DNA from: Vibrio penaeicida
GTDB taxonomy: Bacteria > Pseudomonadota > Gammaproteobacteria > Enterobacterales > Vibrionaceae
NCBI RefSeq assembly: GCF_002933855.1
Contig: NZ_BFAQ01000011.1
Span: forward strand, 29,442-61,441
Length of the DNA stretch: 32,000 nt
Direction: 5' to 3'
A program made the translations under genes and the position numbers. The notes beneath the pieces are model-generated. The model ran no database searches and was not told the origin of the DNA. It saw nothing but the letters and a program-made list of their open reading frames with translations. Positions 3,689 to 21,882 of this stretch are shown piece after piece. The first letter of the stretch is position 1; every line of letters starts with the position of its first letter.

Positions 3689-3691
3689 GTC

Positions 3692-6346: not shown

Positions 6347-6353
6347 GGTCGTC

Positions 6354-6950
6354 ATGGAACATTATATTAGTCTGCTAGTTAAATCGATTTTCATCGAAAA
6401 CATGGCACTGTCTTTCTTCTTGGGTATGTGTACATTCCTTGCGGTATCCAAGAAAGTTAAGACTTCTTTTGGCTTAGGTGTCGCTGTTGTCGTAGTACTT
6501 ACTATTGCAGTACCGGTAAACAACTTAGTTTACAACCTTGTGCTTAAAGAGAACGCTCTGGTTGAAGGTGTTGACCTGAGCTTCCTGAACTTCATTACCT
6601 TCATTGGTGTAATTGCAGCATTGGTACAGATTCTAGAGATGGTTTTAGACCGTTTCTTCCCGCCTCTGTACAACGCACTGGGTATTTTCCTTCCGCTGAT
6701 CACAGTTAACTGTGCAATCTTCGGTGGTGTATCTTTCATGGTGCAGCGTGATTACAACTTTGCTGAGTCCGTAGTTTACGGTTTCGGTTCTGGTGTAGGT
6801 TGGATGCTTGCTATCGTTGCGTTAGCAGGTATTCGTGAGAAGATGAAGTACTCAGACGTTCCTCCAGGTTTACGTGGTCTTGGTATCACATTTATCTCTG
6901 TAGGTCTGATGGCACTGGGCTTCATGTCATTCTCTGGTGTTCAACTGTAA
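6354..6950 (+). CDS. nqrE: Na+-NQR subunit E
   Basis: 198 aa and polytopic (NqrE/RnfA family), beginning [34 protein letters not shown]. Confidence 0.95.
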
Positions 6951-6967
6951 GGCATAAGGAATAGTCA

Positions 6968-8191
6968 ATGGACATTATTCTTGGTGTAGTGATGTTTACA
7001 CTGATTGTTCTAGCCCTAGTTTTGGTTATTTTATTTGCCAAATCTAAGCTAGTACCAACAGGTGACATTACCATTTCCGTAAACGGCGATCCTGAAAAAG
7101 CGATCGTTTCTCAACCAGGTAGCAAGCTGCTAAGTTCTCTTGCTGGCGCTGGTGTATTCGTTTCATCTGCTTGTGGTGGCGGTGGCTCTTGTGGTCAGTG
7201 TCGTGTGAAAGTGAAATCTGGTGGTGGCGACATTCTACCAACAGAACTGGATCACATTACTAAAGGTGAAGCCCGTGAAGGTGAGCGTCTGGCTTGTCAG
7301 GTGGCAGTGAAAACTGACATGGACATCGAGCTTCCAGAAGAAATCTTCGGCGTTAAAAAGTGGGAATGTACGGTTATCTCTAACGATAACAAAGCGACAT
7401 TCATCAAAGAACTTAAGATTCAGATTCCTGATGGCGAGTCAGTACCTTTCCGTGCGGGTGGTTACATTCAAATCGAAGCGCCAGTTCACCACGTGAAATA
7501 CGCTGATTACGATATTCCTGACGAATACCGTGAAGACTGGGACAAGTTCAACCTGTTCCGCTATGAGTCTAAAGTTAACGAAGAAACCATTCGTGCTTAC
7601 TCAATGGCTAACTACCCTGAAGAAGAAGGTATTATTATGCTGAACGTGCGTATCGCTACGCCGCCGCCTAATAATCCTGATGTACCACCTGGTATCATGT
7701 CTTCGTACATCTGGTCTCTTAAAGAAGGTGACAAGTGTACGATCTCTGGTCCATTTGGTGAATTCTTCGCGAAAGATACAGATGCTGAAATGGTATTCGT
7801 TGGTGGTGGTGCCGGTATGGCGCCAATGCGTTCGCATATCTTCGATCAGCTTAAGCGTCTGAACTCTAGCCGTAAGATGTCATTCTGGTACGGTGCACGT
7901 TCTAAGCGTGAGATGTTCTACGTAGAAGACTTTGACGGTCTGCAATCTGAAAACGATAACTTCGTTTGGCACTGTGCTCTATCAGATCCAATGCCAGAAG
8001 ATAACTGGGAAGGTTACACAGGCTTCATCCACAACGTATTGTACGAAAACTACCTGAAGGACCATGATGCTCCTGAAGATTGTGAGTACTACATGTGTGG
8101 TCCACCGATGATGAATGCGGCTGTTATCGGCATGCTGAAAGATCTTGGTGTAGAAGACGAAAACATCCTATTGGATGACTTCGGTGGCTAA
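6968..8191 (+). CDS. nqrF: Na+-NQR subunit F (2Fe-2S ferredoxin / FAD / NADH domain)
   Basis: 407 aa with an N-terminal TM. It has the 2Fe-2S motif [12 protein letters not shown]...C, the FAD motif RAYSMAN and the NADH-binding motif [11 protein letters not shown]. Confidence 0.95.
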
Positions 8192-8346
8192 ACCCATCTA
8201 AGTAATTGATTTGTGGCTGACTCGTATGAGTCAGCCATTTATTTTTGTAAATCAAGTTGCTATAGAACAGTATCCAGAACAACAAACGCTAAAGTATTGG
8301 GTATTTTTCTCTATCAACTTAAATAATTATAAGCAGGAGTGAGCAA

Positions 8347-9351
8347 GTGAAATACTGGCTTGTTGTCTTAACTTCCTTATTGTTTCTAGCTGGTTGCAGT
8401 CAGCCGAAAGAACAAATCCACTTATCCGGTCCTACTATGGGAACGACTTACAATATTAAATATATTGAGGTCGATGGTGCGCCAGCATCTGCCGATATTC
8501 AGAAAGAAGTCGATAAGTTACTGGAATTAGTGAATGACCAGATGTCGACGTATCGCAAGGATTCAGAGCTTAGTCGTTTTAACCAATACAAAGGTAACGA
8601 AGCATTTAAGGTGTCCGCTGAAACCGCAATCGTAGTGAAAGAAGCGATTCGCCTGAATGAGCTTACTCGTGGTGCATTGGATGTGACTGTTGGTCCTCTC
8701 GTTAATTTATGGGGCTTTGGACCAGAAGCTCGACCGGAAGTGGTGCCAAGTGATGAAGAACTAAGTGCTCGAAAAGCCATGACGGGAATATCATATTTAA
8801 GCGCGACTTCTACTACTCTGACAAAGACGCTGCCAGAGCTGTATGTTGACCTTTCTACCATTGCAAAAGGTTGGGGGGTAGATGTCGTTGCCAATTATGT
8901 TGAGTCGCTAGGCATTCACAATTACATGGTTGAAATTGGTGGTGAGATTCGCGTAAAAGGTGTTAATCAAAGCGAAGAAGCGTGGAGAATCGCCATTGAG
9001 AAACCTTCAACCACAGAGCGTGCGATTCAAGAAATTATTGAACCTGGTGACATGGCGATTGCTACTTCAGGGGATTACCGAAATTATTTTGAAAAGGATG
9101 GTATTCGATACTCGCATATTATCAATCCACAATCAGGAAAGCCGATCGATCATAAAGTGGTATCGGTTACGGTTCTTCACCCTTCTAGTATGACGGCCGA
9201 TGGCTTATCTACTGGTATTATGGTGTTAGGTGAAGACGCTGGTCTGGAAATCGCGAACGAAAATGACCTTGCCGTTATGATCATTGTAAAAACAGAGCAA
9301 GGGTTCGAAGAAATCTATTCAGACGCATTTAAGAAGTATTTAAATAAATAA
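8347..9351 (+). CDS. apbE: FAD:protein FMN transferase (flavinylates NqrB/NqrC), lipoprotein
   Basis: 334 aa. GTG start with AGGAG 7 nt upstream and lipobox LFLAGC. The ApbE family pattern is present (GPTMGTTY..., DVTVGPLVNLWGFGP, SGDY) and the gene sits directly after nqrF. Confidence 0.9.
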   Translation: MKYWLVVLTSLLFLAGCSQPKEQIHLSGPTMGTTYNIKYIEVDGAPASADIQKEVDKLLELVNDQMSTYRKDSELSRFNQYKGNEAFKVSAETAIVVKEAIRLNELTRGALDVTVGPLVNLWGFGPEARPEVVPSDEELSARKAMTGISYLSATSTTLTKTLPELYVDLSTIAKGWGVDVVANYVESLGIHNYMVEIGGEIRVKGVNQSEEAWRIAIEKPSTTERAIQEIIEPGDMAIATSGDYRNYFEKDGIRYSHIINPQSGKPIDHKVVSVTVLHPSSMTADGLSTGIMVLGEDAGLEIANENDLAVMIIVKTEQGFEEIYSDAFKKYLNK

Positions 9352-9366
9352 TAGGAGTCGTGAGCA

Positions 9367-9600
9367 ATGGCTACGTTTATCGTTACATTTGGATTTTTCT
9401 TGGCAATTGTCACCGCCATGTCTGTCGGTTACATCTTCCAAAAGAAAGTTGTGAGAGGAAGTTGTGGCGGATTGGATGCCGTTGGCATTGATAAAGTGTG
9501 TAACTGTCCAGAACCATGTGATGCGCGTAAAAAGCGTGAAGCACGTGAGGCAATCCGTGCTGAAAAAATCGCTGCTTGGGAAAAAGATAAAATTCTCTAA
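9367..9600 (+). CDS. nqrM: Na+-NQR maturation protein NqrM (DUF539)
   Basis: 77 aa with one TM, then a Cys cluster (GSCGG...CNCPEPC) and a basic tail. It occupies the conserved position after apbE and has an AGGAG Shine-Dalgarno. Confidence 0.85.
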   Translation: MATFIVTFGFFLAIVTAMSVGYIFQKKVVRGSCGGLDAVGIDKVCNCPEPCDARKKREAREAIRAEKIAAWEKDKIL

Positions 9601-9641
9601 GCTTTTAGCTTAAGAAGCAGATAAAATCGAAGATGTTAAAA

Positions 9642-9672
9642 GTTCAGCCGTTGCTGAGCTTTTTTATTTTTT
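9642..9672. terminator. Rho-independent terminator closing the nqr operon (possibly bidirectional)
   Basis: GTTCAGC-CGTT-GCTGAGC forms a 7-bp stem with one G.U pair, followed by TTTTTTATTTTTT. On the other strand the stem is followed by TTTTAA, and it sits between convergent genes. Confidence 0.75.
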
Positions 9673-9724: not shown

Positions 9725-10099
9725 TTAAATCGATGGGCTGGTTAGCGTAACGGAGTAGCGCCATGGTTTCCCGTTTTCAGTATTGATTTCCATGCTGGCA
9801 TTTTTACCATCGTTTGTACTCAGTGTCAGCGACGGCAGTTCTAATGAAGTTGGTCCACCTCTCTCATTACAAGTAACGTTGCCGGTGAGCTCTACATTAC
9901 CTAATGAATCTGGCGTTATCTTCGCGAGGAATTTGCATTCCCCCGATACCGCTGCTCCCCATTCATTCGCTTCTAGGAAAGCTTCAAAATATTGGCGCTG
10001 ACCTTGTCGTTCTAGCGTAATACATGCCTTGTAGTCAAAATTAGCAGCTGCTGGAAAGCTGGTAGTGACCAACAATAAACACGTCATCCGAATGTTCAT
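9725..10099 (-). CDS. Small secreted Cys-containing protein of unknown function
   Basis: 124 aa with a signal peptide (MNIRMTCLLLVTTSFPAAA/NF) and four Cys in the mature part. The composition is beta-rich. An AGGTGA Shine-Dalgarno lies 5 nt upstream of the ATG, and the start is only 9 nt after the AsmA-like stop. I recognise no family. Confidence 0.6.
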   Translation of the reverse strand: MNIRMTCLLLVTTSFPAAANFDYKACITLERQGQRQYFEAFLEANEWGAAVSGECKFLAKITPDSLGNVELTGNVTCNERGGPTSLELPSLTLSTNDGKNASMEINTENGKPWRYSVTLTSPSI

Positions 10100-10108
10100 T
10101 CTTCACCT

Positions 10109-13100
10109 TTACTTCTTTATAGGGGTTCCGCGCGAAATCATTTCACACAGGTAGCTTCCATCGCTATCAAGCGGTTTTTCAACTAGCCAGCGAATCGGTG
10201 AAATAACTGGGCTGGTAGTGAATCGCACGGACGTTTCTAAGATCGCAGAAAACGGCACACTTAAGTCAAAGTCTTCAAAATTACCGGAAACTTCAATCGG
10301 TGTTTGAAGGCTAAATATCTGGGCTGATTTGGGTCTTGGCGCGAGATAAAGATCGAACGTTCTATCCGAGTAAGAAGCTGAAAAGTTACCATTTACTTGA
10401 ATACGCGTTGTGTCCAGTAACAAGTCCCGCTGCTGCAAATCACCATTTGTGATATCAAAGCCGCCTGCCACGCAATTTAGAACCGATTCCTGTTCCTTGG
10501 TAAAGCTAGGCAATATTGCATCGGTTAAATTGACGGCCCAAAGGTCGATTAAGTCCGCTTCAAACTCCTGTGGCCAAATAGAAAAACCAATAAACCCGTT
10601 AGCGTTATTCATGAGATTATCAGGAGTGTTGGCCAAACTGGTTAAATTAAAGTAAGTACTGAGATTTCCACCCATATCTGTCTTAGTATCGATACGTCTA
10701 GCGATAATACCGTAGTCAAAATGATGTACTTGCCCTTGAATAGCGATATCGAATTGGTCTTGTCGAGCTTCAATTTGCCCAGCCAAAGAAAAGGAGCCGC
10801 CAGGAATACTGATTTTTAATGGAGAGACACGTAATTTTCCATCCAATAGTGATAGCTTCGCGGATGTTGCGCCTAACCAATCATCACCTGAACGAACATT
10901 ACTTACCTCTATATCCATTTCTACGTTTGCCCATGATAAGCCTTCAGGGCTAACGACAAGTGGTTGTGTTGTGCTTTCTTCTACAGTTGGCTTGCGACTA
11001 GAGGTTTCTCGGTTAGCAGAATTCGGTATCCAAGCTTTCCAGTTGCCCACTTTAAAGTCGTCCATTTGAATCTGCGATGATGACAGGCTTAATACAATGT
11101 CAGGACGCGAATATTTCCCGAGTGGGCGGAATTGCCCAGTACCAATAAGCTCACTCTTACCGATATTGAGGACAAGTTGCTGTAATTGATATTGAACGTC
11201 ATCTAGCGATAACTTGGCCGATAAATCAATTGGACCATAAGGCGGAAGCTTGACCCCTGTGAACTCGTTAAGCCTATTTAAATTAGGAATAGCCGCGTTT
11301 AATTGGAGTTCCAATTGAGTGAAGTCCAGTGGTAGGGCAATGTCCGTTGAGGCTTCAATTTTTATATCACCAAGGGTAAAAAAGACATTAGCAGGTAAGC
11401 TTTCTGAAAGCCTATTGGCTTCTTTCAGAGAAACCGATTGGATGCTCAGTGTTGTTTTTTTATCCTGTACGGAGCCCGTCAGTAGCAGCTCGGTGTTGAG
11501 CTCCGGTCCGGTATGAAAATGCCCTTCCGAGATGTGAATGTCCATCGATTTTCCGGTATAGATATCCGGAACCTTGAGATACCCACCTTCAAGTAAAGCT
11601 TGTACTTGAGTCATCTCCATGAATTCAAGTAACGTTTTTCCTGAAAGTGATAAGCTTACTCGGGCACTATCTAATGCCATTTCCATGTCATCGGCGATGC
11701 CAAAGCTTTTAGCGATAGCAGCAATATTCGGTGAGTCAGCTTTAAGGTTAAGCGTTGAGGATATTTGAGCAGCGTTGATGCTAACAGCAAGATCGCCTGT
11801 CATTAGGTTGTCGGCGAGGCGCATTGAAAACGGCGCAGGTTTCATTATGCCGTTTCGAAGCTTACCCGAGAAGGTGATGTGTTTGAGGCTTTGATTTGAC
11901 CATCGCATATCACCGACATTTAGGTTGATATCCGCATCCACAATAGTAATGTCGTTACTCAAGATAGGAACGGAAAGGTTGACCCCTTGAGTTGGTATGG
12001 CTTGTTCTACTTCTGGTAACGTTTCTTCTTGTGCTAACAAGGCGAGTTGATTGAAATCCAATATAGAAAAATCAGCATCGATATCCACAAATGAGCGTTT
12101 AGGATCGTTTAACCATTTGAGTGCTAATGTCCCTTTGCTGTCCATAACACGAAGGTTTTGAGTGGAAAGTGTCAGCCACTCATTTTGATGTTCTAAGGTC
12201 GCATTGAGCTTTAGAGGTCCGCTAGCCCCTGACTGCGTACCTAACCAAGGTGAAAGTTTTGCGATATTCGGGCTCGATATGTCCAGCTTAAATTGGCTGC
12301 CAACTTGCCAGCGTGTTTCAGGGAGAGAGCCAAACGCGTGAATATTCAGTATTGGGCTGTCTAGTGTGATGGTCGTTTCCCAATCTCGCTTGTTGATGAT
12401 GTCTGACAGTGCCCCCGCTTTAGCTGTGATGGTAGCAGGCACACCTTGGAGGTTACCGCGAATATCGACATCGACTGGCTGGTTCATTCCTGCTTTAAAT
12501 CGCGCTTTCTCAATGGCATAGTTTGCACCTTCTGTCCAAGATATAGCGGCATTATCCAATGCAAAAGCGAGGCGACTGTTGTCTATCCATTCCTTAAGTT
12601 TGGTGCCTTCAGTTTGGACACTCAGTAACGCACTTTCAAGGTGACCATCTGCTTCTTCGATACCCGCCAGCCAATGAGCGAGTTCACCGAGTGGAGAGTC
12701 TTGGGCACCAAGCTCTATATTTAAAGTTGAAGACCATTCGGTTGCGTCAATTGATGCCTTCCCTCGGAAAGGAACTTGAGCGATATCGGCAGAAATGGGC
12801 GCGTTCAATGTTCCTTTCTCGCTTACGACGGCAAGAGATAGGTTTTTTATTTCTGTTCCAAGCCCTAATATTTCTCCTATAGAGACAGAAAGGTTGGTTT
12901 GGGTAGAGACCAGCCATTGATCAAGAGCTTGCTGCAGCGGGGACTTTTGCGGTGGTGCAGACGCATACCCCATCATTTGCTGTTCTGGCTCTGGTTGTAG
13001 CCAAGGCTTAAGATCGATCACAGGAATCGTGAGTTTGCCATCAATGGTGTTGACGTCACCAAGTGCAATGTCCAGATACCCTTCTGCTTGTGTGATAGGG

Positions 13101-14101
13101 CTATCCACGTTAAGCGACTTAATGTGCAGTGCGCCCTGTTTTGCCGATATGTCAGCGGAGATACTAAGTGGAGCTATATGATAGACATCGAGCCCCAGTA
13201 AGGCTTCAATAGGCTGTGTGTCGAGCCAGTCTAATTGGATGTTTGCCGTTGAAAGCGCTTTCCCGTTTGGTTGAATATTGGAATTGAATTCCAGAGAAGC
13301 GCCTGCGAAATGACCTTTGACGTCAAGAGAGCCTGTTTGGGCATTGAGGAGCTTTTCTATTTCTCCCGTGACACTCAGGTTGTATTCTTGACCTAATGCT
13401 GCCCCTTTGGTGTTGAGATGCCAAATTTTATCATCTTTGGTTAAATCAAATTCATCCAGAAACCAATCCACATAAGTTTGGGTATTCTGATCTTCGTAAA
13501 TCACACTTAAGCTTTTGGCTACGGCTTTCTCACCGAGTTTGACCGTCCAATGCGCTAGCTTGCTGTCTGAATTTAAGGGGCTATCTGAATTTAAACTGCT
13601 CTCTGAATTGTCGCTGCTTTCTGGTGCCACTCTGGTTACTTGGGGAGCAACAGATTCCGCCTGCTTTCCAATTGCCCAGTTTTCATTGCCATCCATATCT
13701 TTTGCTAGATAGAGATGGATCCCTTCCAAATCAATGTAATCAATGAATAGTGTGTTTTCGAATAAGGGGAATATCGCCACTTTTGCCGAAGCGTGCCCCA
13801 CACGCAGCAGCGGTTGCCACTCTATTGAAGGAATATTCGCGACTTCAATATTATTAATTTCCAACTCAGGCCTAAACGATACATGAAATCGGATATCGCC
13901 ATCAATTTTGACAGGTCGATTGATCTGGTTTTCGAGAATGCTGGATATTTTTGGCTTATGCGCCGTTAGGTTTATGTTGAACCCTACGGTAAGCGCGATA
14001 GCCAGTATTGCAATGAATGAAAGAAGGGTTATACCCAAATATTTCAAGGTTTGAAGCAGAACAAATGGCATTTTAGTTTTGGTGGCTGTTGGCGTATTCA
14101 T
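10109..14101 (-). CDS. AsmA-family giant envelope protein (AsmA/TamB/YhdP-like)
   Basis: 1330 aa. It has an N-terminal TM (YLGITLLSFIAILAIALTVGF), then the typical AsmA N-domain pattern (HKPKISSILENQINRPVKIDGDIRF...LEINNIEVAN...IDYIDLEGIHLYL..DGNENW). A long beta-rich body follows, and the C-terminus is AsmA_2-like (LSLLDGKLRVSPLKISIPGGSFSLAGQIE). The true start could be M11. Confidence 0.8.
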   Translation of the reverse strand: MNTPTATKTKMPFVLLQTLKYLGITLLSFIAILAIALTVGFNINLTAHKPKISSILENQINRPVKIDGDIRFHVSFRPELEINNIEVANIPSIEWQPLLRVGHASAKVAIFPLFENTLFIDYIDLEGIHLYLAKDMDGNENWAIGKQAESVAPQVTRVAPESSDNSESSLNSDSPLNSDSKLAHWTVKLGEKAVAKSLSVIYEDQNTQTYVDWFLDEFDLTKDDKIWHLNTKGAALGQEYNLSVTGEIEKLLNAQTGSLDVKGHFAGASLEFNSNIQPNGKALSTANIQLDWLDTQPIEALLGLDVYHIAPLSISADISAKQGALHIKSLNVDSPITQAEGYLDIALGDVNTIDGKLTIPVIDLKPWLQPEPEQQMMGYASAPPQKSPLQQALDQWLVSTQTNLSVSIGEILGLGTEIKNLSLAVVSEKGTLNAPISADIAQVPFRGKASIDATEWSSTLNIELGAQDSPLGELAHWLAGIEEADGHLESALLSVQTEGTKLKEWIDNSRLAFALDNAAISWTEGANYAIEKARFKAGMNQPVDVDIRGNLQGVPATITAKAGALSDIINKRDWETTITLDSPILNIHAFGSLPETRWQVGSQFKLDISSPNIAKLSPWLGTQSGASGPLKLNATLEHQNEWLTLSTQNLRVMDSKGTLALKWLNDPKRSFVDIDADFSILDFNQLALLAQEETLPEVEQAIPTQGVNLSVPILSNDITIVDADINLNVGDMRWSNQSLKHITFSGKLRNGIMKPAPFSMRLADNLMTGDLAVSINAAQISSTLNLKADSPNIAAIAKSFGIADDMEMALDSARVSLSLSGKTLLEFMEMTQVQALLEGGYLKVPDIYTGKSMDIHISEGHFHTGPELNTELLLTGSVQDKKTTLSIQSVSLKEANRLSESLPANVFFTLGDIKIEASTDIALPLDFTQLELQLNAAIPNLNRLNEFTGVKLPPYGPIDLSAKLSLDDVQYQLQQLVLNIGKSELIGTGQFRPLGKYSRPDIVLSLSSSQIQMDDFKVGNWKAWIPNSANRETSSRKPTVEESTTQPLVVSPEGLSWANVEMDIEVSNVRSGDDWLGATSAKLSLLDGKLRVSPLKISIPGGSFSLAGQIEARQDQFDIAIQGQVHHFDYGIIARRIDTKTDMGGNLSTYFNLTSLANTPDNLMNNANGFIGFSIWPQEFEADLIDLWAVNLTDAILPSFTKEQESVLNCVAGGFDITNGDLQQRDLLLDTTRIQVNGNFSASYSDRTFDLYLAPRPKSAQIFSLQTPIEVSGNFEDFDLSVPFSAILETSVRFTTSPVISPIRWLVEKPLDSDGSYLCEMISRGTPIKK

Positions 14102-14205
14102 AGCACGTTATACGGTGTGTCTGATGTCATATTAGGCGCAAAGGACAATAGCACAGACCCAAGCAAAAATATAAAGTTATGATCGCGATAATGAGAGTAC
14201 CGCAC

Positions 14206-14850
14206 CTAGTGCCGAGTACTTCGTTTTATGTAGATGCTTACGCGACGATTGGCTTTTCTTTGAGCTGCGAGTTCCACTGTATCTGATATTGTTGGGTAGG
14301 TATCTGCGTACGCGACAGCACTCAGTTTTGTCTTGTCGATAGACAAGGAAATCAGCTGTTTTGTTACGCCTATTGCTCTTGCACCGGAAAGCTCCCAGTT
14401 GCTATCGAAATGGTCGTTATGAATAGGTAAGTCATCTGTATGACCTTCGACGACAATTTCCTTTCCCTCCAAACTTGTACGTTCTATAGACGACGCAAAA
14501 ATTGTCAACAGCCGAACGCCTTCATTGCTTAACTTTGCGGAACCTTCTTCGTAAAGTGCTTCTGTGTCGAAATCCACTTTAATTCCATCAGGCATTTTCG
14601 TTAAGGAGATAGGCTCATGCTCAGTCGATTGCTTTAGGGCTTGAATGAGCAGGGTCATTGGCATCTCGGCTTTTCGATCCGATAGCGCGTTCCAACTGGC
14701 TTTCAGCTCTTCAAACTTTCCTTGGTCGATTTGAGAAGTGGCGAGAATAACGATGAAGAAAGTCATCAAAAGTGTAATGAAATCACTGTACGTTACTAGC
14801 CAGTCATTTTCTTCTCGGACATCGGCACCACTCTGTCTTCTGCGCGGCAT
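14206..14850 (-). CDS. MotB/PomB-type stator subunit with OmpA-like peptidoglycan-binding C-terminus
   Basis: 214 aa. The basic N-terminus is followed by WLVTYSDFITLLMTFFIVIL, a single TM with the conserved channel Asp (D23; compare E. coli MotB YADFMTAMM). The C-terminus is OmpA-like (VEGHTDD.P......SNWELSGARA...RRVSIYI). The start is 2 nt after the motA-like stop. Confidence 0.85.
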   Translation of the reverse strand: MPRRRQSGADVREENDWLVTYSDFITLLMTFFIVILATSQIDQGKFEELKASWNALSDRKAEMPMTLLIQALKQSTEHEPISLTKMPDGIKVDFDTEALYEEGSAKLSNEGVRLLTIFASSIERTSLEGKEIVVEGHTDDLPIHNDHFDSNWELSGARAIGVTKQLISLSIDKTKLSAVAYADTYPTISDTVELAAQRKANRRVSIYIKRSTRH

Positions 14851-14852
14851 AA

Positions 14853-15632
14853 TTAGGACTCCAGCCTTTTCTTGGGAGAGAGATAGCTGTTCATCGAGTC
14901 TTTGATGTGCATATCAGGTTGCTTTTCCGTCATCATCACAAAGGCTTGGATCTGCATATCTCGATGGCGAAAATTGTCGTCAGATTTACGCCTAACATTG
15001 ATCGCAGAAGGCTTGAACAAAGCCTGAGCAAGTAGAGTGCCGTATAACGTTGTAAGTAGGGCAATCGCCAGCCCTTTCCCCATGGTAGCCATGTCACCAT
15101 CTAAGCTATCCAGCATAACAATCAACCCAACCAGTGTGCCTATCATGCCAAATGCAGGAGAGAAATTTGCCATAGTACTCAACACATTGGCGGGTTGTGC
15201 TTCTTGCACTCGCTGGCTTTCGTTACTTTCATCAAGCAAATTACGAAGTGCCTTCCCTTTGTAGCCTGTGCCCAGTAACTCTATGGCCATTGCAATGAAA
15301 GGGTCTTTTAACTCTTTATTTGTTAAGGTTTTTTCCAAGCCAGTAATTCCTTCGGTGCGATACACCTTGTTCCATTCTAATGAGCGAATGATAGAAGAGT
15401 GCTTCAGTTTGGTTTCATTCCTACCATCAAATAAGCTTGCAATAACCGCTTGAATGGCTTTAAAGAAAAGAGGGTAAGAGTAGCTAATTAGGGCTGCAGT
15501 TGACGTTCCTCCTGCAACAATCAGAAAGCTGGATAAGCTAACAAATAGCCAATAATTATCGGTGCTTGAAACCACAGCGGTAGTCAAGACAGCGGCAGAA
15601 AACAGCCATCCCGTAATGGTACTCAAAGACAT
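14853..15632 (-). CDS. MotA/PomA-type ion-channel stator subunit (MotA_ExbB family)
   Basis: 259 aa with four predicted TMs in a 2 + long cytoplasmic loop + 2 layout, which is flagellar-stator topology rather than the 3-TM TolQ/ExbB layout. TM3 has FSPAFGMIGTLVGLIVML and TM4 has GLAIALLTTLYGTLLAQALFKP. The start overlaps the upstream stop by 1 nt (TAATG). Confidence 0.85.
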   Translation of the reverse strand: MSLSTITGWLFSAAVLTTAVVSSTDNYWLFVSLSSFLIVAGGTSTAALISYSYPLFFKAIQAVIASLFDGRNETKLKHSSIIRSLEWNKVYRTEGITGLEKTLTNKELKDPFIAMAIELLGTGYKGKALRNLLDESNESQRVQEAQPANVLSTMANFSPAFGMIGTLVGLIVMLDSLDGDMATMGKGLAIALLTTLYGTLLAQALFKPSAINVRRKSDDNFRHRDMQIQAFVMMTEKQPDMHIKDSMNSYLSPKKRLES

Positions 15633-17482
15633 TAGGCTAGTTCCTCCAGCTCACTCATTTTAAACTTATTTTCTTCTAACGCTTGACGCATGACCCTAAC
15701 AATATCTTGCTTGGCAGCGTTTCTATCGTTTTCGTTGACGTCCGTTGCCATCTCTAATTCACTGATTACCATATTGACGTAGCGGTTTGGACAGCCTGAA
15801 ATCAGCGCTTTTACGCGTTCCACTGGCATATCTGAAAAGGCGTTAGCAAGTGTTTGAGCATCAAGATTTCGGATATGATTGCTAATGATTTGTGTCGGTG
15901 TTCGCCAAATGTCATCAAAGCTATAAAAACGTTGTTTTAGCTGCACATAAGCACCCGGAGACGTTTCTTTTAACTGGGTTAATAGGTCGTTTTGTTTGGT
16001 GATACTTAACCCATCGAGGATTTGAGTCAAAACGAAAGGACCATCAGTAGGTAGCGTTCTAAAGTCTGGAACGGTTTGAGCTTTCGTCGCCAACGAAGAA
16101 GCAACATCATTAAAGGTTGCCATAGGAAGAGTGTCTAACCGAGCAATTTCCATCGCCAATTCAGCCTGACGTTCCATTGGGTATAGAGAAAGCAGCGCTG
16201 CAGAATTCTCTGAAGAAAGTTGGCTAATCACCATAGCCTGTATACGCTCAGGCTCGTGCTCCAACAGCCAGCGGATTTGGTTGATGGACAGGGTCTCAAG
16301 AAAATCAAATGGTTGTGACTTTCGGGTTGAGTGTGCGTGAGGGTTTGAGTCGACAAGGAGCTGCTTGAATGCAGAAACGTGCTTTACGACTTGCTCGCGA
16401 TCATTTGGGTTTTGCTCCAAATAGCTTACATAGCTAGGTATCTGAGAAGTCAGGCTAGGGTACATAGTGGTGAACATCGCTCTCCCAAGCTCTTGATATA
16501 CGCAAGCAAACATAGGCAGATTTTGTTCGTTTAGGCTGAGTTTTCTGATGGTCTGATCGACTTGATGAGGCTCGCCTAAGCTGAATTTGACTAATTCTTG
16601 GCGACACGCCTCGTGTTCATAATACTGATGGGAAACTAAGGGCTCGGCTTGCAATGAGGAAGCAGGCTGAACATCGTTTACAGTATCGTTGTTTGGTCCT
16701 GCAGAGCGTGCGCGAAGCAGCATGACGATAAGAGTAATTATCACCAAGCCAAGCGCAATGAGCGTTAGCCAAAAGTAATCTAGCCAAAATACTTTCTCCT
16801 GAATTTGAGTGCTGTCTTTGTTGGGAACCTCAAATACGGTGCGGATGATGTCCAGCGAATCGCCTCTAAGTGGGTTGTAATCCACTTTTTGAATCAGAAG
16901 TTTTTTTAGGAGCTGTACGTTTTCGCTGCTCACCTTTTCGTCCAGCAATAGTGTTACGGACAACTTGTTGATTTCAGTAGAGAGAGGTTTGGCTTCCCTT
17001 TGGTTTTTGCTGATGTTAGCCGTTGGGTTGGGTGCCGGCGTATTTTGCTGGGGGGGAGGCGCTGGCTGAGCCATGGTCTGAACTGGAATCTCAATGTTCT
17101 CTTTGGCGGGCATGCCGCTTAATCCAGGCAGTTTAGGGACGAATTCAGCTACTCTTCGAACAGGTGCTGCAATGGTTGTCGTTCTTTGAGGGGCTCCAGT
17201 TTGATCGGCTTTAGTTTCGGGTGTTTTGGCTGCAGATGCATTAGCTACAGGTACGTTGATTCCCGAATTCTCCTTTTGTACGAACTCCGATTGAATGGTC
17301 AAGACATGCTTGTTGGGTCCTATGATACGTTCAATATCGTCATTTATGCGCGCTTCTAATCTCGCAGAGAATTCAAGCGCTTGGATCTCACTGGATGATT
17401 GCGCAAGGCTAAAGCTAGATATACAAAAAGGCAGAATAAAGGCAAGTTTAACTAATGGGTTCATCATTATTTTTCCAGCCAT
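15632..17482 (-). CDS. Bitopic membrane protein: FliF/YscJ-like periplasmic motif + TM + FliG-like middle and C-terminal domains
   Basis: 616 aa from the track start. The alternative starts M6 and M7 (17467/17464) form a TAATG overlap with the upstream stop and are plausible. Features are an N-terminal signal/anchor, periplasmic EIQALEFSARLEARINDDIERIIGPNKHVLTIQ and LSVTLLLDEK...NPLRGDSLDIIRTVF (FliF-like), and a Pro-rich spacer. A TM follows (FWLTLIALGLVIITLIVMLL). The cytoplasmic part has LLEHEPERIQAMVISQL...LSLYPMERQAELAMEIARLD (FliG-M EHPQ-like) and FYSFDDI...LANAFSDMPVERVKALISGCPNRYVNMVISELE...AAKQDIVRVMRQALEENKF (FliG-C-like). Confidence 0.7.
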   Translation of the reverse strand: MAGKIMMNPLVKLAFILPFCISSFSLAQSSSEIQALEFSARLEARINDDIERIIGPNKHVLTIQSEFVQKENSGINVPVANASAAKTPETKADQTGAPQRTTTIAAPVRRVAEFVPKLPGLSGMPAKENIEIPVQTMAQPAPPPQQNTPAPNPTANISKNQREAKPLSTEINKLSVTLLLDEKVSSENVQLLKKLLIQKVDYNPLRGDSLDIIRTVFEVPNKDSTQIQEKVFWLDYFWLTLIALGLVIITLIVMLLRARSAGPNNDTVNDVQPASSLQAEPLVSHQYYEHEACRQELVKFSLGEPHQVDQTIRKLSLNEQNLPMFACVYQELGRAMFTTMYPSLTSQIPSYVSYLEQNPNDREQVVKHVSAFKQLLVDSNPHAHSTRKSQPFDFLETLSINQIRWLLEHEPERIQAMVISQLSSENSAALLSLYPMERQAELAMEIARLDTLPMATFNDVASSLATKAQTVPDFRTLPTDGPFVLTQILDGLSITKQNDLLTQLKETSPGAYVQLKQRFYSFDDIWRTPTQIISNHIRNLDAQTLANAFSDMPVERVKALISGCPNRYVNMVISELEMATDVNENDRNAAKQDIVRVMRQALEENKFKMSELEELA

Positions 17483-18054
17483 TTCATCATTCGTTTTACT
17501 TCAGGGAGCTCAGGGTTGTGCTTCAACGCTTGTTGCCAAGCAATGATGGCATCTTCTACTTTGCCCAGTTTGTAAAGAACACTCCCCTTTGTCGCAAGAA
17601 TGTTTTCTGGCGTTTCTGTTAGTGGTTGAGCTTGTTCAAGTAGAGTCAGTGCGGCATTAAAATCGCCTTTCACTGCATTTTCTTGAGCTTCTAATTTGAG
17701 TGCGAGTGACCTCGCTTCATTGAATGGAGATACAGGTTCCTCCCCATTTTCTTCTTGAGAAGGTGCGGCATCTTCAGTTTGTGGGGCAGTTTCCTCAGGA
17801 AGAGGAAATGCTGACTCTTCCTGAGACACGGTTGTGTAAGTGGGCTCAGCACTGTCTGTCTCGATGGTTAACACCATATCCGGATCAGACAAATCAAATT
17901 GCACACCTGATTCATACTGGTTGCCCTGCATGTGTATGGTTATTTTTCCATCTTTCATTGCAACTCGTTGTCGAGTTTCTGATTGAGATGCTGATTCAGC
18001 CCAAGCTGGATTTGTCAGCAAAAATAGACAAGCACAAAGGATCGTATTCTTCAT
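17467..18054 (-). CDS. Secreted protein with acidic Pro/Glu linker and C-terminal TPR repeats
   Basis: 195 aa with signal peptide MKNTILCACLFLLTNPAWA/ES. A low-complexity acidic segment (PEETAPQTEDAAPSQEENGEEP) is followed by a TPR-like helical repeat (GDFNAALTLLEQA...GKVEDAIIAWQQALKHNPELPE). The start is 3 nt after the upstream stop. Confidence 0.7.
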   Translation of the reverse strand: MKNTILCACLFLLTNPAWAESASQSETRQRVAMKDGKITIHMQGNQYESGVQFDLSDPDMVLTIETDSAEPTYTTVSQEESAFPLPEETAPQTEDAAPSQEENGEEPVSPFNEARSLALKLEAQENAVKGDFNAALTLLEQAQPLTETPENILATKGSVLYKLGKVEDAIIAWQQALKHNPELPEVKRMMKWLEK

Positions 18055-18057
18055 GGA

Positions 18058-19083
18058 TTAAAACCTCACGCCTAACGTTAGATCGAACGCAGGGTTGCCG
18101 CCCCATGTGCCGTTTTCAAAGGTGTCTTTGCTGATGTACATCAAACCGAGATCGACAAAAATATCCCCTTGAGTAAAGAAGGCATTTCGTGGTGGTGACA
18201 ATTCTAGCCCTGCACGTACGGCGATTTTTTGTTTGTTCTCAACAAACTGAAAGCCCGAACCCGCGTAAACAGATAACCAGTCATCGGTAATCGCATACAG
18301 TGCTCTAGCTTCTGCTCCAAAGCCTTGAATCGAAAAATTTGTACTGCCGTCAAAGTTGCGAAAATAGTTGCCGATAAAGGCAAAGTGAGCGCGTTCTGAT
18401 GGGGTGTGCCCGCTGTAGTAGCGTATAGAAAGGTCCGTTACATTTTGTATGTCTTCGCCATCAGTTGAGGTACCATTGATACCAATGTAACCAAGAGCGA
18501 CTCCGACTCCGCTCTCCTTTACATTCTTCTTTGCGAGCACATCCGGATCCTCCTTTATGTCGAAGTTTCCCGTCCATACCACTTCGTTATTTTGAGTGCT
18601 AACTAGTGACATAGTGATGTTGTGAGTATTGTCGCTAAGAGGCGAACGCCAGGTTAGGAAGGCGTCGACACGTATTTTCTTTCCGAGCTTACGCAGTTCA
18701 TCATTACTTGAAAGCCCATGCTTAAACTTTACGTTGGAGGCAGAGAGGTTGACTTGTGTTTTTCCACATTCGATACAGCTGCGTACTTTGATCCCATTGT
18801 TTTTCATTTTGGCAGTTAGGATCGATGTCAGCTTGAGCAGCTCGGTTTTTTCTTCATCCGTTACGGCTTTACCCTCGAAATACAAGGCGACACTTTGGAT
18901 CTTAGCTAAAGACTTGTTGTCTAAAATGTCGAACCAAAGATCATCGTGTTCTAAGAATTCTTCAACTGTTTGTGCTTCATTATCTTTTGCGGAGAAAAGT
19001 GCATTTAAAGGTTTGGAAAAAACAATCGAAGAGTAAGAAATTAAAAGGGTGCTAATGGTTAGAGTCGTGACTTTTTTCCACAT
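18058..19083 (-). CDS. Secreted two-domain protein, putative outer-membrane beta-barrel with N-terminal periplasmic alpha/beta domain
   Basis: 341 aa with signal peptide MWKKVTTLTISTLLISYSSIVFS/KP. The C-terminal ~170 aa show an alternating aromatic/small-residue strand pattern rich in G/Y/F and end ...FDLTLGVRF, the terminal-Phe OMP signature. The N-terminal half has alternating helix/strand character. The family is not recognised with certainty. Confidence 0.6.
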   Translation of the reverse strand: MWKKVTTLTISTLLISYSSIVFSKPLNALFSAKDNEAQTVEEFLEHDDLWFDILDNKSLAKIQSVALYFEGKAVTDEEKTELLKLTSILTAKMKNNGIKVRSCIECGKTQVNLSASNVKFKHGLSSNDELRKLGKKIRVDAFLTWRSPLSDNTHNITMSLVSTQNNEVVWTGNFDIKEDPDVLAKKNVKESGVGVALGYIGINGTSTDGEDIQNVTDLSIRYYSGHTPSERAHFAFIGNYFRNFDGSTNFSIQGFGAEARALYAITDDWLSVYAGSGFQFVENKQKIAVRAGLELSPPRNAFFTQGDIFVDLGLMYISKDTFENGTWGGNPAFDLTLGVRF

Positions 19084-19347
19084 AATGAAACTCCATTCAG
19101 ATCGAGGCTAGGGAAAAGACCTCGAACTGATAGGCTAGGGGACTCACTCTATTTGAATCGCCTTGCACACATGATCCCGAGGGCTGGGTATGAAGAGTAT
19201 TTTGTTAACCCTTTGGATTTCTTGCAATAAACCATTGATCTGATGATTAAACGCATGGCGTGCTTTGTTTAGATAGGGGTATGTAGCTTGAAGTGATTTT
19301 CCGCCGTTTTGAGTGATCTTTGTATATGTAGAAATGGTAGGTGTAGA

Positions 19348-20571
19348 TTAGCGAGCAACGAGGCGGTTTCGACCTTCTTCTTTTGCTTGATACAACAGAT
19401 CGTCAGCATCCCGAATAATTTCTTCTAGGTTTTGCTCTTCATTGCCAGAGCTAACACCAATACTCACTGTGAGATGAATTTGTAAATCTTCGTATTGAAC
19501 AGCCGTTTTCTCTATTCGTTGGCGCATCTTGTCTAGGCGACTTTGGAATTCTTGATAATCCCCACAGTGTTGAATACAGAACTCTTCACCACCAAATCTC
19601 ACCGCAATTTCATTTTTGAAGTAGATGGATATAATTTGCGCCACAGTAACCAGTGCTCTGTCGCCGCCATCATGACCATAGGTATCATTCACTTTCTTAA
19701 AGAAGTCGATATCAATCATGGCGATATTGCGATTGTCACAACATTTATTGTTGTTCTCACCGAACAAGTAGCGACGATTCCAAAGACCAGTTAACGCATC
19801 TTGGTTAGCGATGCGATAAAGCTCGTCGGTGGCGTCTTTCATATCCAGAATGTGTTGAACTCGACAATAGAATTCTTCTTGGTTGAAAGGCTTATAAAGG
19901 AAATCGTTAGCACCAGCTTTTAGAAATCGCGCCGTCATCGTGCGGTCGTTATTGCCAGACAGGCCCAGAATAGCCAAATGATTTCGATCATACTGATTTC
20001 TAATTTCTCTGGTCATAGTAATGCCGTCTTTATTCGGCATGTCATGATCGGTAATTATCATAGTGATGTCTGGGTTTTCCGCTAAAATATCAATAGCTTG
20101 CTGCCCATCATTTGCTTGCAAGGTATCAATGTACTGATGCTCAAGGAGATACACTACATGGTTTCTAACGGTAATTGAGTCATCGACAACCAATGCTTTG
20201 TGTGTATGGTTCGCCATCAATCGCTTTAGAAGTGGGATCAAATAGGATACAGAAGCGCTACTGTCTTTGGTGATGTAATCGAGTACACCTTTAGCAATAA
20301 CATGTTCACGGACGTTTTCATTAAACTGAGCGGTGAGAACAATCGCACGAACTTTATGCGATAAAACGAGATCGATAATTTCCCCGTCTGGACCGTCGGG
20401 TAAGCAATAATCCAATACAGCGCATAGAAAGTTAGTATCTTGTCTTATTATGTTATTTGCCGCTTCTAACGACTCCGCTAAGACAACTTCAAAACCAATT
20501 TGCTTAAGCTGCGAGTTAAGGTAATTACGAAAGGCTCGACTATCCTCGACAACCAAAATCCGATTTAGCAC
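19348..20571 (-). CDS. Response regulator diguanylate cyclase (REC-REC-GGDEF, PleD-like architecture)
   Basis: 407 aa. GTG start with GGAG 5 nt upstream. REC1 has VVEDS...AVLDYCLPDG...YITKD. REC2 has VVDDS...IITDHDMPNKDG...FLYKPF. The GGDEF domain has ALTGLWNRRY, DIDFFKKVNDTYGHDGGD and the active site RFGGEEF. Confidence 0.9.
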   Translation of the reverse strand: MLNRILVVEDSRAFRNYLNSQLKQIGFEVVLAESLEAANNIIRQDTNFLCAVLDYCLPDGPDGEIIDLVLSHKVRAIVLTAQFNENVREHVIAKGVLDYITKDSSASVSYLIPLLKRLMANHTHKALVVDDSITVRNHVVYLLEHQYIDTLQANDGQQAIDILAENPDITMIITDHDMPNKDGITMTREIRNQYDRNHLAILGLSGNNDRTMTARFLKAGANDFLYKPFNQEEFYCRVQHILDMKDATDELYRIANQDALTGLWNRRYLFGENNNKCCDNRNIAMIDIDFFKKVNDTYGHDGGDRALVTVAQIISIYFKNEIAVRFGGEEFCIQHCGDYQEFQSRLDKMRQRIEKTAVQYEDLQIHLTVSIGVSSGNEEQNLEEIIRDADDLLYQAKEEGRNRLVAR

Positions 20572-20814: not shown

Positions 20815-21882
20815 ATGGCAAATGATGCGATGAAGAAAATAATTCATGTGGATATGGATTGTTTTTATGCCGCAGTGGAAATGCGCGATAACCCCGCCTA
20901 TAGAGGGCGACCTCTTGCCGTTGGAGGAAGTGAAAAGCAACGCGGTGTTCTGAGTACGTGTAATTATGAAGCGCGTCGATTTGGTATTCGATCAGCAATG
21001 CCAACAGGGCAAGCTTTGAAACTCTGTCCCAATTTGCTGGTGGTGCCGGGGCGGATGCAAGTTTACGTTGATACCTCACGAAAAATACGCGAAATTTTTG
21101 AACGGTATACTTCGGTCATTGAACCTCTGTCCCTTGATGAAGCCTATCTGGATGTTACTGAAACTCAAGTTCTTCATGGCAGTGCCACTTTGATAGCGGA
21201 GGCGATCCGTTATGACATTTGGAATGAATTAAAATTGACAGCTTCGGCGGGCGTTGCTCCTATCAAATTCCTAGCGAAAGTCGCATCCGACATTAATAAA
21301 CCGAATGGCTTGTGCGTGATCCCACCAGACAAGGTTCAGGAAACGATTGATTCGCTTACACTTGATAAAATCCCTGGTGTGGGAAAAGTGTCCTTAGAAA
21401 AGCTGAATACTGCGGGTTTTTTTACTTGTCGAGATATTCGCAAATCGGATTATCGTTCACTGCTGACCCAATTTGGTCGCCAAGGTGAGTCGTTATGGAA
21501 GCGCAGCCAAGGTATTGATAATCGAGAAGTTGTTACTGAGCGCGAGCGAAAATCGGTTGGTGTAGAACGCACTTTTTCCCAAAATATTCGCACGTTTGAT
21601 GAATGTTGGAAGGTGATTGCAGACAAGCTCTTCCCTGAGTTAGAACATCGTTTAGTGAAAGCATCACCAGAAAAGGCGATCATTAAACAGGGTATAAAAA
21701 TGAAATTTGCGGATTTTCAGCAAACCACGATAGAGCATATTCATGGTGAATTAGAGCTAGAAGATTTTCGAGGTTTATTAGAAAAGGTACTGCAACGTCA
21801 GAAAGGAAGAGAGATTCGTTTGCTCGGGCTGAACGTGATGCTCAAACCCGAACAAGAAGCGAGACAGCTCAGTTTTTTCTGA
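20815..21882 (+). CDS. dinB: DNA polymerase IV (Y-family translesion polymerase)
   Basis: 355 aa. It begins KIIHVDMDCFYAAVEMRDNP (catalytic DMD), with SLDEAYLDVT and IAPIKFLAKVASD..KPNG. It is full length, with a LexA box upstream. Confidence 0.93.
   Translation: MANDAMKKIIHVDMDCFYAAVEMRDNPAYRGRPLAVGGSEKQRGVLSTCNYEARRFGIRSAMPTGQALKLCPNLLVVPGRMQVYVDTSRKIREIFERYTSVIEPLSLDEAYLDVTETQVLHGSATLIAEAIRYDIWNELKLTASAGVAPIKFLAKVASDINKPNGLCVIPPDKVQETIDSLTLDKIPGVGKVSLEKLNTAGFFTCRDIRKSDYRSLLTQFGRQGESLWKRSQGIDNREVVTERERKSVGVERTFSQNIRTFDECWKVIADKLFPELEHRLVKASPEKAIIKQGIKMKFADFQQTTIEHIHGELELEDFRGLLEKVLQRQKGREIRLLGLNVMLKPEQEARQLSFF

Follow-up and report, generated by a model that had tools for sequence, protein, structure and literature searches.

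The stretch of DNA analysed here (the window) comprises 32,000 nucleotides (nt) of the Vibrio penaeicida contig NZ_BFAQ01000011.1, and near its centre lies an open reading frame (ORF), 15632..17482, that codes for 616 amino acids and that we call FliFG. All features described below are on the minus strand unless stated otherwise, and positions are those of the window. FliFG is a natural single polypeptide in which a FliF-type periplasmic ring-building element is joined, through a transmembrane (TM) helix, to a FliG-type cytoplasmic rotor domain. The gene belongs to a five-gene module read from one strand in the order p341-TPR-FliFG-MotA-MotB, with overlaps or gaps of -16, 3, -1 and 2 nt between its members. 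The protein is 100% identical to a V. penaeicida entry at NCBI named 'FliG C-terminal domain-containing protein', a record of 611 amino acids that begins at M6 (nt 17467).

The FliFG polypeptide

The ORF, Pfam, profile searches of the PDB, hhalign, and an AlphaFold2 model compared with solved structures by Foldseek define a layout of FliF (ring-building motif 3, RBM3, and TM2) followed by FliG (N-like, M and C). A single-chain fusion of FliF-like and FliG-like parts beside a MotA/MotB pair had been proposed from the letters of the sequence (the original prediction), and Pfam, PDB profile search, hhalign, hmmsearch and Foldseek uphold it. The ORF and its 616-residue product exist as described there, and the mapping of residues to nucleotides was largely right: TM residues 236-257 do lie at 16712..16777, the torque-helix span 15746..15790 does correspond to residues 565-579, and the EHEPER core, at 16244..16261, falls within the range given for it. 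The first ring-building segment ('EIQALE...') starts at residue 32 and not 33, the other residue numbers being correct, while residues 172-217 start at 16832 as given but end at 16969, not 16963. The AlphaFold2 model, a monomer, has a mean predicted local distance difference test score (pLDDT) of 61, rising to 75-89 in the FliG part. A Foldseek search with such a model had been proposed as a check, and its first 13 matches are all FliG chains, followed by FliF S-ring/RBM3 structures (probability 1.0 for the S-ring matches), with no other significant matches.

Hydropathy reveals one strong TM helix at residues 236-257 (16712..16777; maximum 2.84), which hhalign places at the position of FliF TM2, and a weak hydrophobic segment at residues 5-28. 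A site with small residues at -3 and -1 (xxA/Q) is kept in alignments of close homologues and, because this S-L-A/Q site is conserved, residues 1-27 (17402..17482) are likely to be a Sec-type signal peptide or an N-in anchor, with probable cleavage after S25-L-A27 and before Q28. An N-terminal signal or anchor combined with a single strong TM helix puts residues 28-235 in the periplasm and residues 258-616, the FliG part, in the cytoplasm; hence hydropathy does not lead to the periplasmic C-terminal region that the original prediction had recognised as a danger to itself.

In the cytoplasmic part, Pfam identifies FliG_M (PF14841) at residues 402-472 with 51.6 bits (cut-off 25) and FliG_C (PF01706) at residues 503-607 with 52.1 bits (cut-off 23.3), and both are matched in 35 of 35 diverse family members. 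An alignment of these 35 members, used as the hhalign query, matched residues 398-609 to E. coli FliG 113-323 (probability 97.8%, E = 1e-12), and a family profile built from nine homologues retrieved FliG 3hjl from the PDB sequences at E = 3e-26. The FliG middle (ARM-M) domain occupies residues 398-472 (16067..16291), on the evidence of Pfam, column statistics and hhalign, which aligns it with E. coli FliG 113-190; the C-terminal domain occupies residues 503-607 (15662..15976), as shown by Pfam, the hhalign residue map and conservation in the family. We rejected a generic MgtE_N or ARM-repeat identity: MgtE_N scores 20.5 bits, below its cut-off, the PDB sequence and fold matches are all FliG, and no MgtE chain occurs among the matches of the family profile at E<=1. 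The original prediction had allowed that its FliG likeness might dissolve into such a helical repeat; by Pfam and PDB profile search, the C-terminal 220 residues are specifically FliG M and C. FliFG is nevertheless unlike the soluble FliG of flagellar operons, which has about 330 amino acids, in being 616 residues long, anchored in the membrane and without flagellar neighbours, and its score against TIGR00207 (fliG), 55.4 bits against a cut-off of 226.7, is below equivalog level.

The alignment of R567, S574 and E575 with R281, D288 and D289 of E. coli FliG, as given in the original prediction, was reproduced exactly by hhalign, which adds the equivalents S550 = K264 and N583 = R297. The torque helix thus retains the counterparts of R281 (R567) and D289 (E575); among the 35 family members, the R281 position is basic (R/K) in 32, the D289 position acidic (E/D) in 27 and the D288 position acidic in 15. 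The MFxF-type hinge reads F519-Y-S-F522, its second Phe (F522) being invariant in the family, and G481, at the position of the GG linker, is nearly invariant. A parallel had also been drawn with the EHPQ(R) motif. The position does match, within the segment L-L-E-H-E-P-E-R, but the motif itself is not conserved in the family, which keeps only E410 (in 33 of 35 members) and, at position 413, a basic residue (in 25 of 35); the H, P and Q vary. This loss fits the absence of FliM/FliN genes.

Between the TM helix and FliG_M lie 135 helical residues, in which the AlphaFold2 model shows six helices at residues 283-392 (16307..16636), a region that is possibly a degenerate FliG_N. The top three PDB matches of a profile of residues 280-392 are FliG N-domains (8umx_B, 8umd_B and 5tdy_B, residues 5-68) at a borderline E of ~0.02, and Foldseek aligned 323 columns with full-length FliG 8umx_B. 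Compared with FliG_N by hhalign, the juxtamembrane region reaches a probability of only 7%, and the Pfam FliG_N matches in the family land on the M domain, reflecting an internal repeat. A degenerate FliG_N domain may have been retained. Profiles of residues 259-325 and 283-325, compared with the C-terminus of E. coli FliF, did not detect the FliG-binding tail of FliF. The original prediction envisaged a covalent tether that replaces the FliG-N interface; the covalent joining is real, but replacement is not established, the region being helical with borderline FliG_N matches.

The periplasmic part was matched by hhalign to E. coli FliF with a probability of 96.2% (E = 2e-9), residues 171-260 corresponding to FliF 374-472. 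This match covers the last strand-helix-strand of RBM3 and TM2, the TM helix of FliFG being aligned with FliF 445-472, and within it we recovered the stretch 'LSVAVVV...RGDSLNVVNSPF' that the original prediction had placed before TM2 of FliF. The second half of RBM3 in FliFG, residues 168-216 (16835..16981), contains the stretch 'LSVTLLLD...RGDSLDIIRTVF', which matches E. coli FliF 374-434 (hhalign, hmmsearch and conservation); the first half, residues 30-70 (17273..17395), aligns with the start of RBM3 at E. coli FliF 231-250 (AlphaFold2, hmmsearch and Foldseek). Searched locally with hmmsearch, a profile of the whole periplasmic region behaves as a single domain colinear with E. coli FliF 231-434 (E = 1.4e-4 with Z set to the size of the PDB), the alignment beginning at the first helix of RBM3 ('QLKYASDVEGRIQRRIEAIL') and ending at 'RGDSLNVVNSPF'; FliF 231-472 is colinear with FliFG residues 32-260. 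Among PDB sequences the family profile found FliF 6scn (E = 3e-5) and also FliF 12dr. Pfam YscJ_FliF_C scores 23.0 bits on the V. penaeicida protein, just below the cut-off of 23.8, and is matched in 12 of 35 family members, at best with E 7e-8. R206, G207 and D208 are invariant in one family alignment (A3), and G207 and D208 are nearly invariant in another (A2).

The modelled elements are a helix (30-54), a strand (59-70), an insert left unmodelled (71-167), a second strand (168-181), a helix (186-199) and a third strand (209-215), so that the periplasmic region of the model adopts one RBM fold of the alpha-beta-beta-alpha-beta type, with an insertion where FliF has its beta-collar. Two segments resembling YscJ/FliF had been singled out from the sequence; their homology to the ring-building part of FliF stands, but they are the halves of one RBM3 and not separate elements. 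Every solved RBM3 structure matched by Foldseek is a ring-forming module. TM1, RBM1 and RBM2 of FliF are absent: some 30 residues precede RBM3, there is no match to PF01514, and the alignments all start at FliF 228-231.

The insert, residues 71-167 (16982..17272), was delimited by composition, pLDDT and motif conservation. Its 97 residues include 16% P and 15% A, are variable in sequence, have pLDDT <40 and stand in the same topological position as the FliF beta-collar; this is the spacer foreseen between the two segments, rich in Pro, Ala and Thr. Within this otherwise hypervariable, disordered insert, the motif LPGL[PS]G (residues 118-123, nt 17114-17131) is nearly universal. Together, the LPGL[PS]x motif and the near-constant TPR neighbour suggest a short linear motif to which the TPR protein could bind.

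Partners and distribution of the module

Immediately downstream of FliFG, the start of the next gene overlapping its stop by 1 nt, lies a stator A subunit of MotA/PomA type (14853..15632; 259 amino acids, four TM helices), identified by Pfam MotA_ExbB, NCBIfam, PDB matches and alignment. It is followed by a stator B subunit of MotB type (14206..14850; 214 amino acids), in which Pfam and alignment identify a TM helix, a plug (MotB_plug, 62 bits) and an OmpA-like peptidoglycan-binding domain (OmpA, 48.9 bits). At E<=1e-3, the A subunit matches only flagellar stators in the PDB, among them 8ucs_C (5e-28) and PomA (5e-23). In NCBIfam, the A subunit reaches 128 bits against the PomA cut-off of 341, and the stator reaches 147 bits for MotD against 283; the equivalog cut-offs of PomA, MotA and MotB are unmet. 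Residues R92, E100, P159 and P208 of the A subunit are the equivalents of R90, E98, P173 and P222 in E. coli MotA, and D23 of the MotB-like protein aligns with D32 of E. coli MotB. Seven copies of the module were aligned: every one has MotA R90, P173 and P222 and MotB D32, and five have E98. The MotA-FliG charge pairs R90-D289 and E98-R281 were defined genetically in E. coli (cited in PMC12505986). With R92 and E100 in the A subunit, and R567 and E575 in FliFG, both pairs are therefore present.

The gene upstream of FliFG (17467..18054) codes for a secreted TPR protein of 195 amino acids, recognised by Pfam TPR_2, TPR_11 and TPR_1 and by synteny. It is the most constant neighbour of FliFG, adjoining it in nearly all loci examined. 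A small secreted protein with TPR/Sel1-type repeats beside a stator recalls, as we take it, MotX of the MotX/MotY T-ring; NCBIfam detected no MotX similarity in it. Next comes p341 (18058..19083), a secreted protein of 341 amino acids recognised by synteny and by its AlphaFold2 secondary structure, with an N-terminal alpha/beta domain and eight long predicted C-terminal beta-strands that end in Phe. The V. penaeicida protein has no Pfam match, a profile search of the PDB was likewise empty, and its AlphaFold2 model, built on seven sequences, has a pLDDT of 38; its homologue in V. nigripulchritudo is labelled 'Porin' in UniRef. The protein is probably an outer-membrane beta-barrel protein, an assignment of low certainty.

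Homologues of p341 from loci L008-L012, L017, L019 and L027 were examined for a FlgO-like motif. Eight of ten match Pfam FlgO below threshold (13-19.6 bits, cut-off 22.6), always over the same motif of 45 residues; three have weak FlgT_M matches, and matches to OMP_b-brl are sub-threshold too. The resemblance to the Vibrio H-ring (FlgO/FlgP/FlgT) is thus limited to sub-threshold FlgO and FlgT_M matches over about 45 residues, and the predicted C-terminal beta-barrel is not covered by the FlgO family profiles. The periplasmic domain of p341 is possibly FlgO-like, and the protein could be a further part derived from the flagellum. Its N-terminal domain also carries an invariant CxEC pair, C103 and C106.

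An exhaustive profile search recovered 192 clusters (50% identity) at E<1e-30, mostly of 550-730 amino acids and aligned from end to end, and the FliFG architecture is thus that of a family of considerable size. The five-gene order recurs in Aliivibrio fischeri ES114 (on chromosome II), A. logei and A. finisterrensis, in Thalassolituus, Bermanella, Marinicellulosiphila, Bacterioplanoides and one Pseudomonadales metagenome-assembled genome (MAG), and in all metagenome loci with enough flanking sequence except the divergent L036, so that one gene order is held at 22-42% protein identity across gammaproteobacterial orders and many metagenomes. Loci were recovered with a narrow pattern, which biases this sample towards Vibrionaceae and Oceanospirillales. 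Further afield, a FliFG member of 20% identity lies in the order TPR...MotA-MotB-FliFG, with MotA-MotB directly upstream, and other distant members occur as FliFG-TPR-p341, or as TPR-FliFG with other outer-membrane proteins, with no MotAB nearby.

This conservation bears on the reading of the module as a decaying, functionless remnant of a duplicated flagellar locus. The patchy distribution in Vibrionaceae, the different genomic sites in Vibrio and Aliivibrio and the lack of a known phenotype for any member would suit a remnant, but the ORFs are intact and tightly packed, the five-gene order persists at 22-42% identity across orders, each of the three motor proteins retains its functional residues and about 190 clusters (50% identity) retain the full-length architecture. 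Conservation already contradicts a remnant, and we regard it as the least credible of the explanations considered.

Several loci show variations of their own. A gammaproteobacterial MAG from Guaymas (L013/L036, 2660-6334) has tandem FliFG-like genes of 430 and 789 amino acids after a TPR gene, and no MotAB was detected near them; they may be a split or duplicated rotor variant. In L038 (7303-12971), TPR-FliFG stands beside an outer-membrane barrel of TraF_2/PorP_SprF type and a surface protein with PKD/Ig/cadherin repeats, and in L040 (6456-6797) it stands beside a divergently transcribed PilZ-domain protein. Such neighbours of distant members hint at a cell-surface output and at control by cyclic di-GMP (c-di-GMP). 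Several family members are annotated 'flagellar motor switch protein FliG' by JGI, and these labels could inflate genome-based predictions of motility.

In A. fischeri, the squid symbiont, the stator orthologues are motA2 (VF_A0186) and motB2 (VF_A0187) and the fused gene is VF_A0185, so that the FliFG module explains the orphan motA2B2 paralogues of this species. Insertions in motA2 and motB2 leave soft-agar motility unaffected, FlrA does not activate motA2B2, and it is motA1B1 that is essential for motility (Brennan et al. 2013, PMC3948606). The orthologous stator is hence not needed for swimming, as shown in A. fischeri and not in V. penaeicida. In one A. fischeri biofilm model, motA2/motB2 are down-regulated with the flagellar genes (PMC10804989). 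We found no paper on the FliFG family, VF_A0185 or the module in a search of the literature that is open without subscription.

These data also bear on a role in regulating motility, in which the tethered FliG would act as a decoy rotor competing for stator units, or the MotAB paralogues would swap into the polar motor, and swimming would be tuned under, for example, high c-di-GMP or surface contact. The joint down-regulation in the biofilm model is compatible with such a role, as are the diguanylate cyclase gene that adjoins the module in two Vibrio species and the family members that have no stator of their own nearby. Against this, most lineages have a dedicated stator, the cyclase neighbour is not conserved, swimming is normal in motA2 and motB2 mutants and neither gene belongs to the FlrA regulon; furthermore, a cytoplasmic decoy would have no need of the conserved RBM3, TPR and outer-membrane partners. 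We consider a decoy or regulator improbable.

Proposed interpretation as a rotor and stator

Compared with flagellar FliF and FliG and with MotAB/PomAB, the module has in common an RBM3 colinear with FliF 231-434 and followed by TM2; the M and C domains of FliG, with R281/D289 equivalents, the MFxF hinge and the GG-type linker; and a stator with a 4-TM MotA (R90, E98, P173, P222) and a MotB bearing D32, plug and OmpA domain. It differs in having a signal-peptide-like N-terminus in place of TM1, no RBM1 or RBM2, a Pro/Ala-rich insert at the position of the beta-collar, no detectable FliG-binding FliF tail and no intact EHPQR, and in combining dedicated TPR and outer-membrane partners with the absence of genes for FliM/FliN, export apparatus, rod, hook and filament.

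These likenesses and differences decide against FliFG as a true flagellar component, in which case an alternative MS-ring/FliG and its stator would serve the polar flagellum or a second, cryptic flagellar system. All recognisable parts are flagellar in origin, the JGI label reads 'flagellar motor switch protein FliG' and p341 has a weak FlgO-like motif, all of which would favour such a component. However, FliFG lacks RBM1, RBM2 and a recognisable beta-collar, the parts of FliF that house the export gate and rod. No other flagellar genes lie in the window, and genes for FliM/N, FlhA/B, FliPQR, rod, hook and flagellin are absent both from it and from the related loci examined; that no FliM/FliN-like gene is nearby had been anticipated, and Pfam and inspection of the neighbours confirm it for the window. 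The profile scores also fall far short (TIGR00207, 55 bits against 226.7; the PomA model, 128 against 341), and the stator orthologues of A. fischeri are dispensable for motility. A flagellar component is largely refuted and very improbable. Having no FliM/FliN switch, export gate, rod, hook or filament, the module does not constitute a flagellum and is unable to secrete or to switch as a flagellum does.

Fusion of FliF to FliG is not by itself without precedent. Laboratory-made fusions of full-length FliF and FliG from Salmonella and Vibrio alginolyticus have the same order of FliF part then FliG part and assemble into rings (PMC6079021, PMC11481574), and the closest precedent, also the one natural fusion for which we found a description, is the much shorter fusion of Chlamydiaceae, of about 330 amino acids (Bergeron 2016, PeerJ, PMC4768692). 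The Chlamydiaceae protein is likewise a natural chain of FliF-type periplasmic RBM(s), TM and cytoplasmic FliG-type domain in the absence of a flagellum; it has two TM helices, an RBM2-like domain and a second RBM, and only the middle domain of FliG, with no torque-generating C domain, and it belongs among a few flagellar paralogues related to type III secretion, with no MotAB and with SctQ as its proposed partner. By comparison with this published description, the FliFG family is set apart by its length of about 600 amino acids, its RBM3, its FliG (N-like)-M-C and the MotAB in its operon.

We estimate at roughly 60% the probability that the FliFG gene codes for the rotor of a self-contained, non-flagellar rotor-stator module. 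Each part belongs to a known kind, and the novelty lies in the assembly, in which a one-chain rotor without RBM1/2, recognisable collar, switch or export gate has its own stator, TPR and outer-membrane partners, a wide distribution and apparently no link to swimming. FliF itself assembles into a ring of about 33-35 subunits. We envisage that the periplasmic RBM3 domains would associate to form an inner-membrane ring resembling the S-ring, and that this ring would array the FliG domains under the membrane as the equivalent, in one polypeptide, of the MS-ring and upper C-ring. Peptidoglycan-anchored units of MotA5B2 type would dock on FliG_C through the pairs R92-E575 and E100-R567, and ion flow through D23 of the MotB-like protein would push, and probably turn, the ring. 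On its periplasmic face the ring would contact the TPR protein, perhaps via the LPGLPx motif of the insert; the TPR protein would link it to the outer-membrane protein p341, and ion-motive force would in this way be delivered to a process in the envelope or outer membrane.

Several points weigh against this rotor. It is difficult to see how the ring could rotate freely if p341 fixes it to the outer membrane while MotB fixes the stator to peptidoglycan. The beta-collar appears to be replaced by a low-complexity insert, and ring geometry may therefore differ, or the ring may not form. Three of the five classical torque-helix charges of E. coli are lost in V. penaeicida (K264 to S550, D288 to S574, R297 to N583), and a few family members have no acidic residue at 288/289, including P0061, which bears MotAB; loss of these acidic residues does not follow the absence of an adjoining MotAB. 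Nor did the charges covary: the two loci in which E98 is Leu or Ile keep Lys in FliFG, which makes the covariation result uninformative. Adjoining MotAB is absent in some members (L001, L016, L038 and L040), the lack of a known phenotype counts here as well, and the confidence of the AlphaFold2 monomer is moderate, insert and juxtamembrane region being poorly modelled.

The main rival is a static scaffold or sensor, in which a fixed, envelope-anchored platform would recruit and unplug the MotAB-like channel without continuous rotation, and ion flow or a conformational change of the stator would serve signalling, sensing of envelope tension or Tol/Ton-like energising of an outer-membrane partner. 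The conserved TPR and outer-membrane partners could immobilise the periplasmic domain, the periplasmic linker of the MotB-like protein is short (214 amino acids for the whole protein against 308 in E. coli), the switch complex is absent, and the associated regulators vary by lineage, with REC-REC-GGDEF in V. penaeicida, a two-component system in Aliivibrio and PilZ in L040. On the other hand, the FliG features that are kept, namely torque-helix charges, MFxF hinge and GG-type linker, are tied to torque transmission and domain rotation, and RBM3 forms rings in every matched solved structure. Furthermore, as structures of MotAB, ExbBD and GldLM indicate, a 5:2 stator rotates its own A-ring whatever the load, which also counts against a static platform. 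We judge the scaffold or sensor unlikely, if less so than the other rivals.

Ion-driven motors of 5:2 type that lie outside the flagellum and have outputs spanning the periplasm include ExbBD-TonB, TolQRA-Pal, GldLM/PorLM, AglRQS-Glt and ZorAB. In common with the FliFG module, they have an inner-membrane channel of the MotA/MotB superfamily that is genetically coupled to periplasmic and outer-membrane partners and turns no flagellum; their A subunits are of ExbB/TolQ/GldL type and force passes through the B subunit or through an arm like TonB, TolA or GldM, whereas the FliFG module has a flagellar-type stator and a cognate FliG at its cytoplasmic face. To our knowledge, no non-flagellar 5:2 motor uses a FliG-type cytoplasmic rotor, all other non-flagellar MotAB relatives transmit force via periplasmic arms, and the MotA-FliG torque interface has so far been thought exclusive to flagella. 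These motors are reviewed in PMC12505986.

If our interpretation is correct, bacteria use the torque interface of the flagellum (MotA-FliG) outside it, and the module would be the simplest natural system in which to study ring assembly, stator recruitment and the generation of torque in isolation from the other proteins of the flagellum, which number 25 or more. The module bears, too, on how motor and export apparatus were joined in flagellar evolution. A bolder proposal, which we advance tentatively and with less than even confidence, is that it represents a new class of ion-driven rotary nanomachine. This would be a minimal flagellar-type motor whose rotor (S-ring and FliG ring) is one polypeptide turned by its own MotAB, and which lacks a filament, a switch, an axial rod and a type III export gate. 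The TPR protein, which might dock on the LPGLP motif, would couple it to an outer-membrane beta-barrel resembling FlgO, and it would energise a process of the outer membrane or cell surface; it would be a living model of, or a reduction from, the 'proto-motor' stage before export that is debated in flagellar evolution.

Genomic surroundings in Vibrio penaeicida

Upstream of p341, at a distance of 264 nt, lies a gene for a REC-REC-GGDEF diguanylate cyclase (19348..20571; Pfam, NCBIfam). Its GGEEF motif is intact, and inspection by eye shows no I-site (RxxD) five residues ahead of the motif. Among NCBIfam models, that of the bile-resistance regulator CbrR fits the protein best, with 243 bits against a cut-off of 600. 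Beyond the stator genes are an AsmA-like protein of 1330 amino acids (10109..14101; Pfam AsmA, 129 bits), unusually long and with an N-terminal anchor, and, 9 nt downstream of it, a secreted, Cys-containing protein of 124 amino acids without family match (9725..10099). These last two genes may be co-transcribed with the module. V. penaeicida and V. nigripulchritudo alone have these three genes beside the module, the other loci lacking them; accordingly, the AsmA-like protein and the diguanylate cyclase were rejected as core parts.

Together, the eight genes that run from the cyclase to the 124-residue protein (9725-20571) form an insertion between nqrA-F/apbE/nqrM (2336-9600, plus strand) and dinB (20815-21882, plus strand), and the arrangement in V. 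nigripulchritudo is identical. The five-gene core of Aliivibrio lies on chromosome II, where its neighbours are a molybdopterin oxidoreductase/cytochrome pair and a two-component system. The difference of site suggests that the core module moves horizontally. Scans for promoters and terminators gave counts at or below the shuffled expectation and were left unused except for a hairpin at 9638-9663, which has an 11-bp stem (AAAAGTTCAGC-CGTT-GCTGAGCTTTT) flanked by A- and T-runs and stands between the convergent nqrM and 124-residue genes; from its sequence and position, it looks like a bidirectional terminator that would close both transcription units. Elsewhere in the window, and unrelated to FliFG, 25397-27997 codes for a secreted protein of 866 amino acids that combines a GH18 chitinase domain with four Ig-like domains of the Big_7 family.

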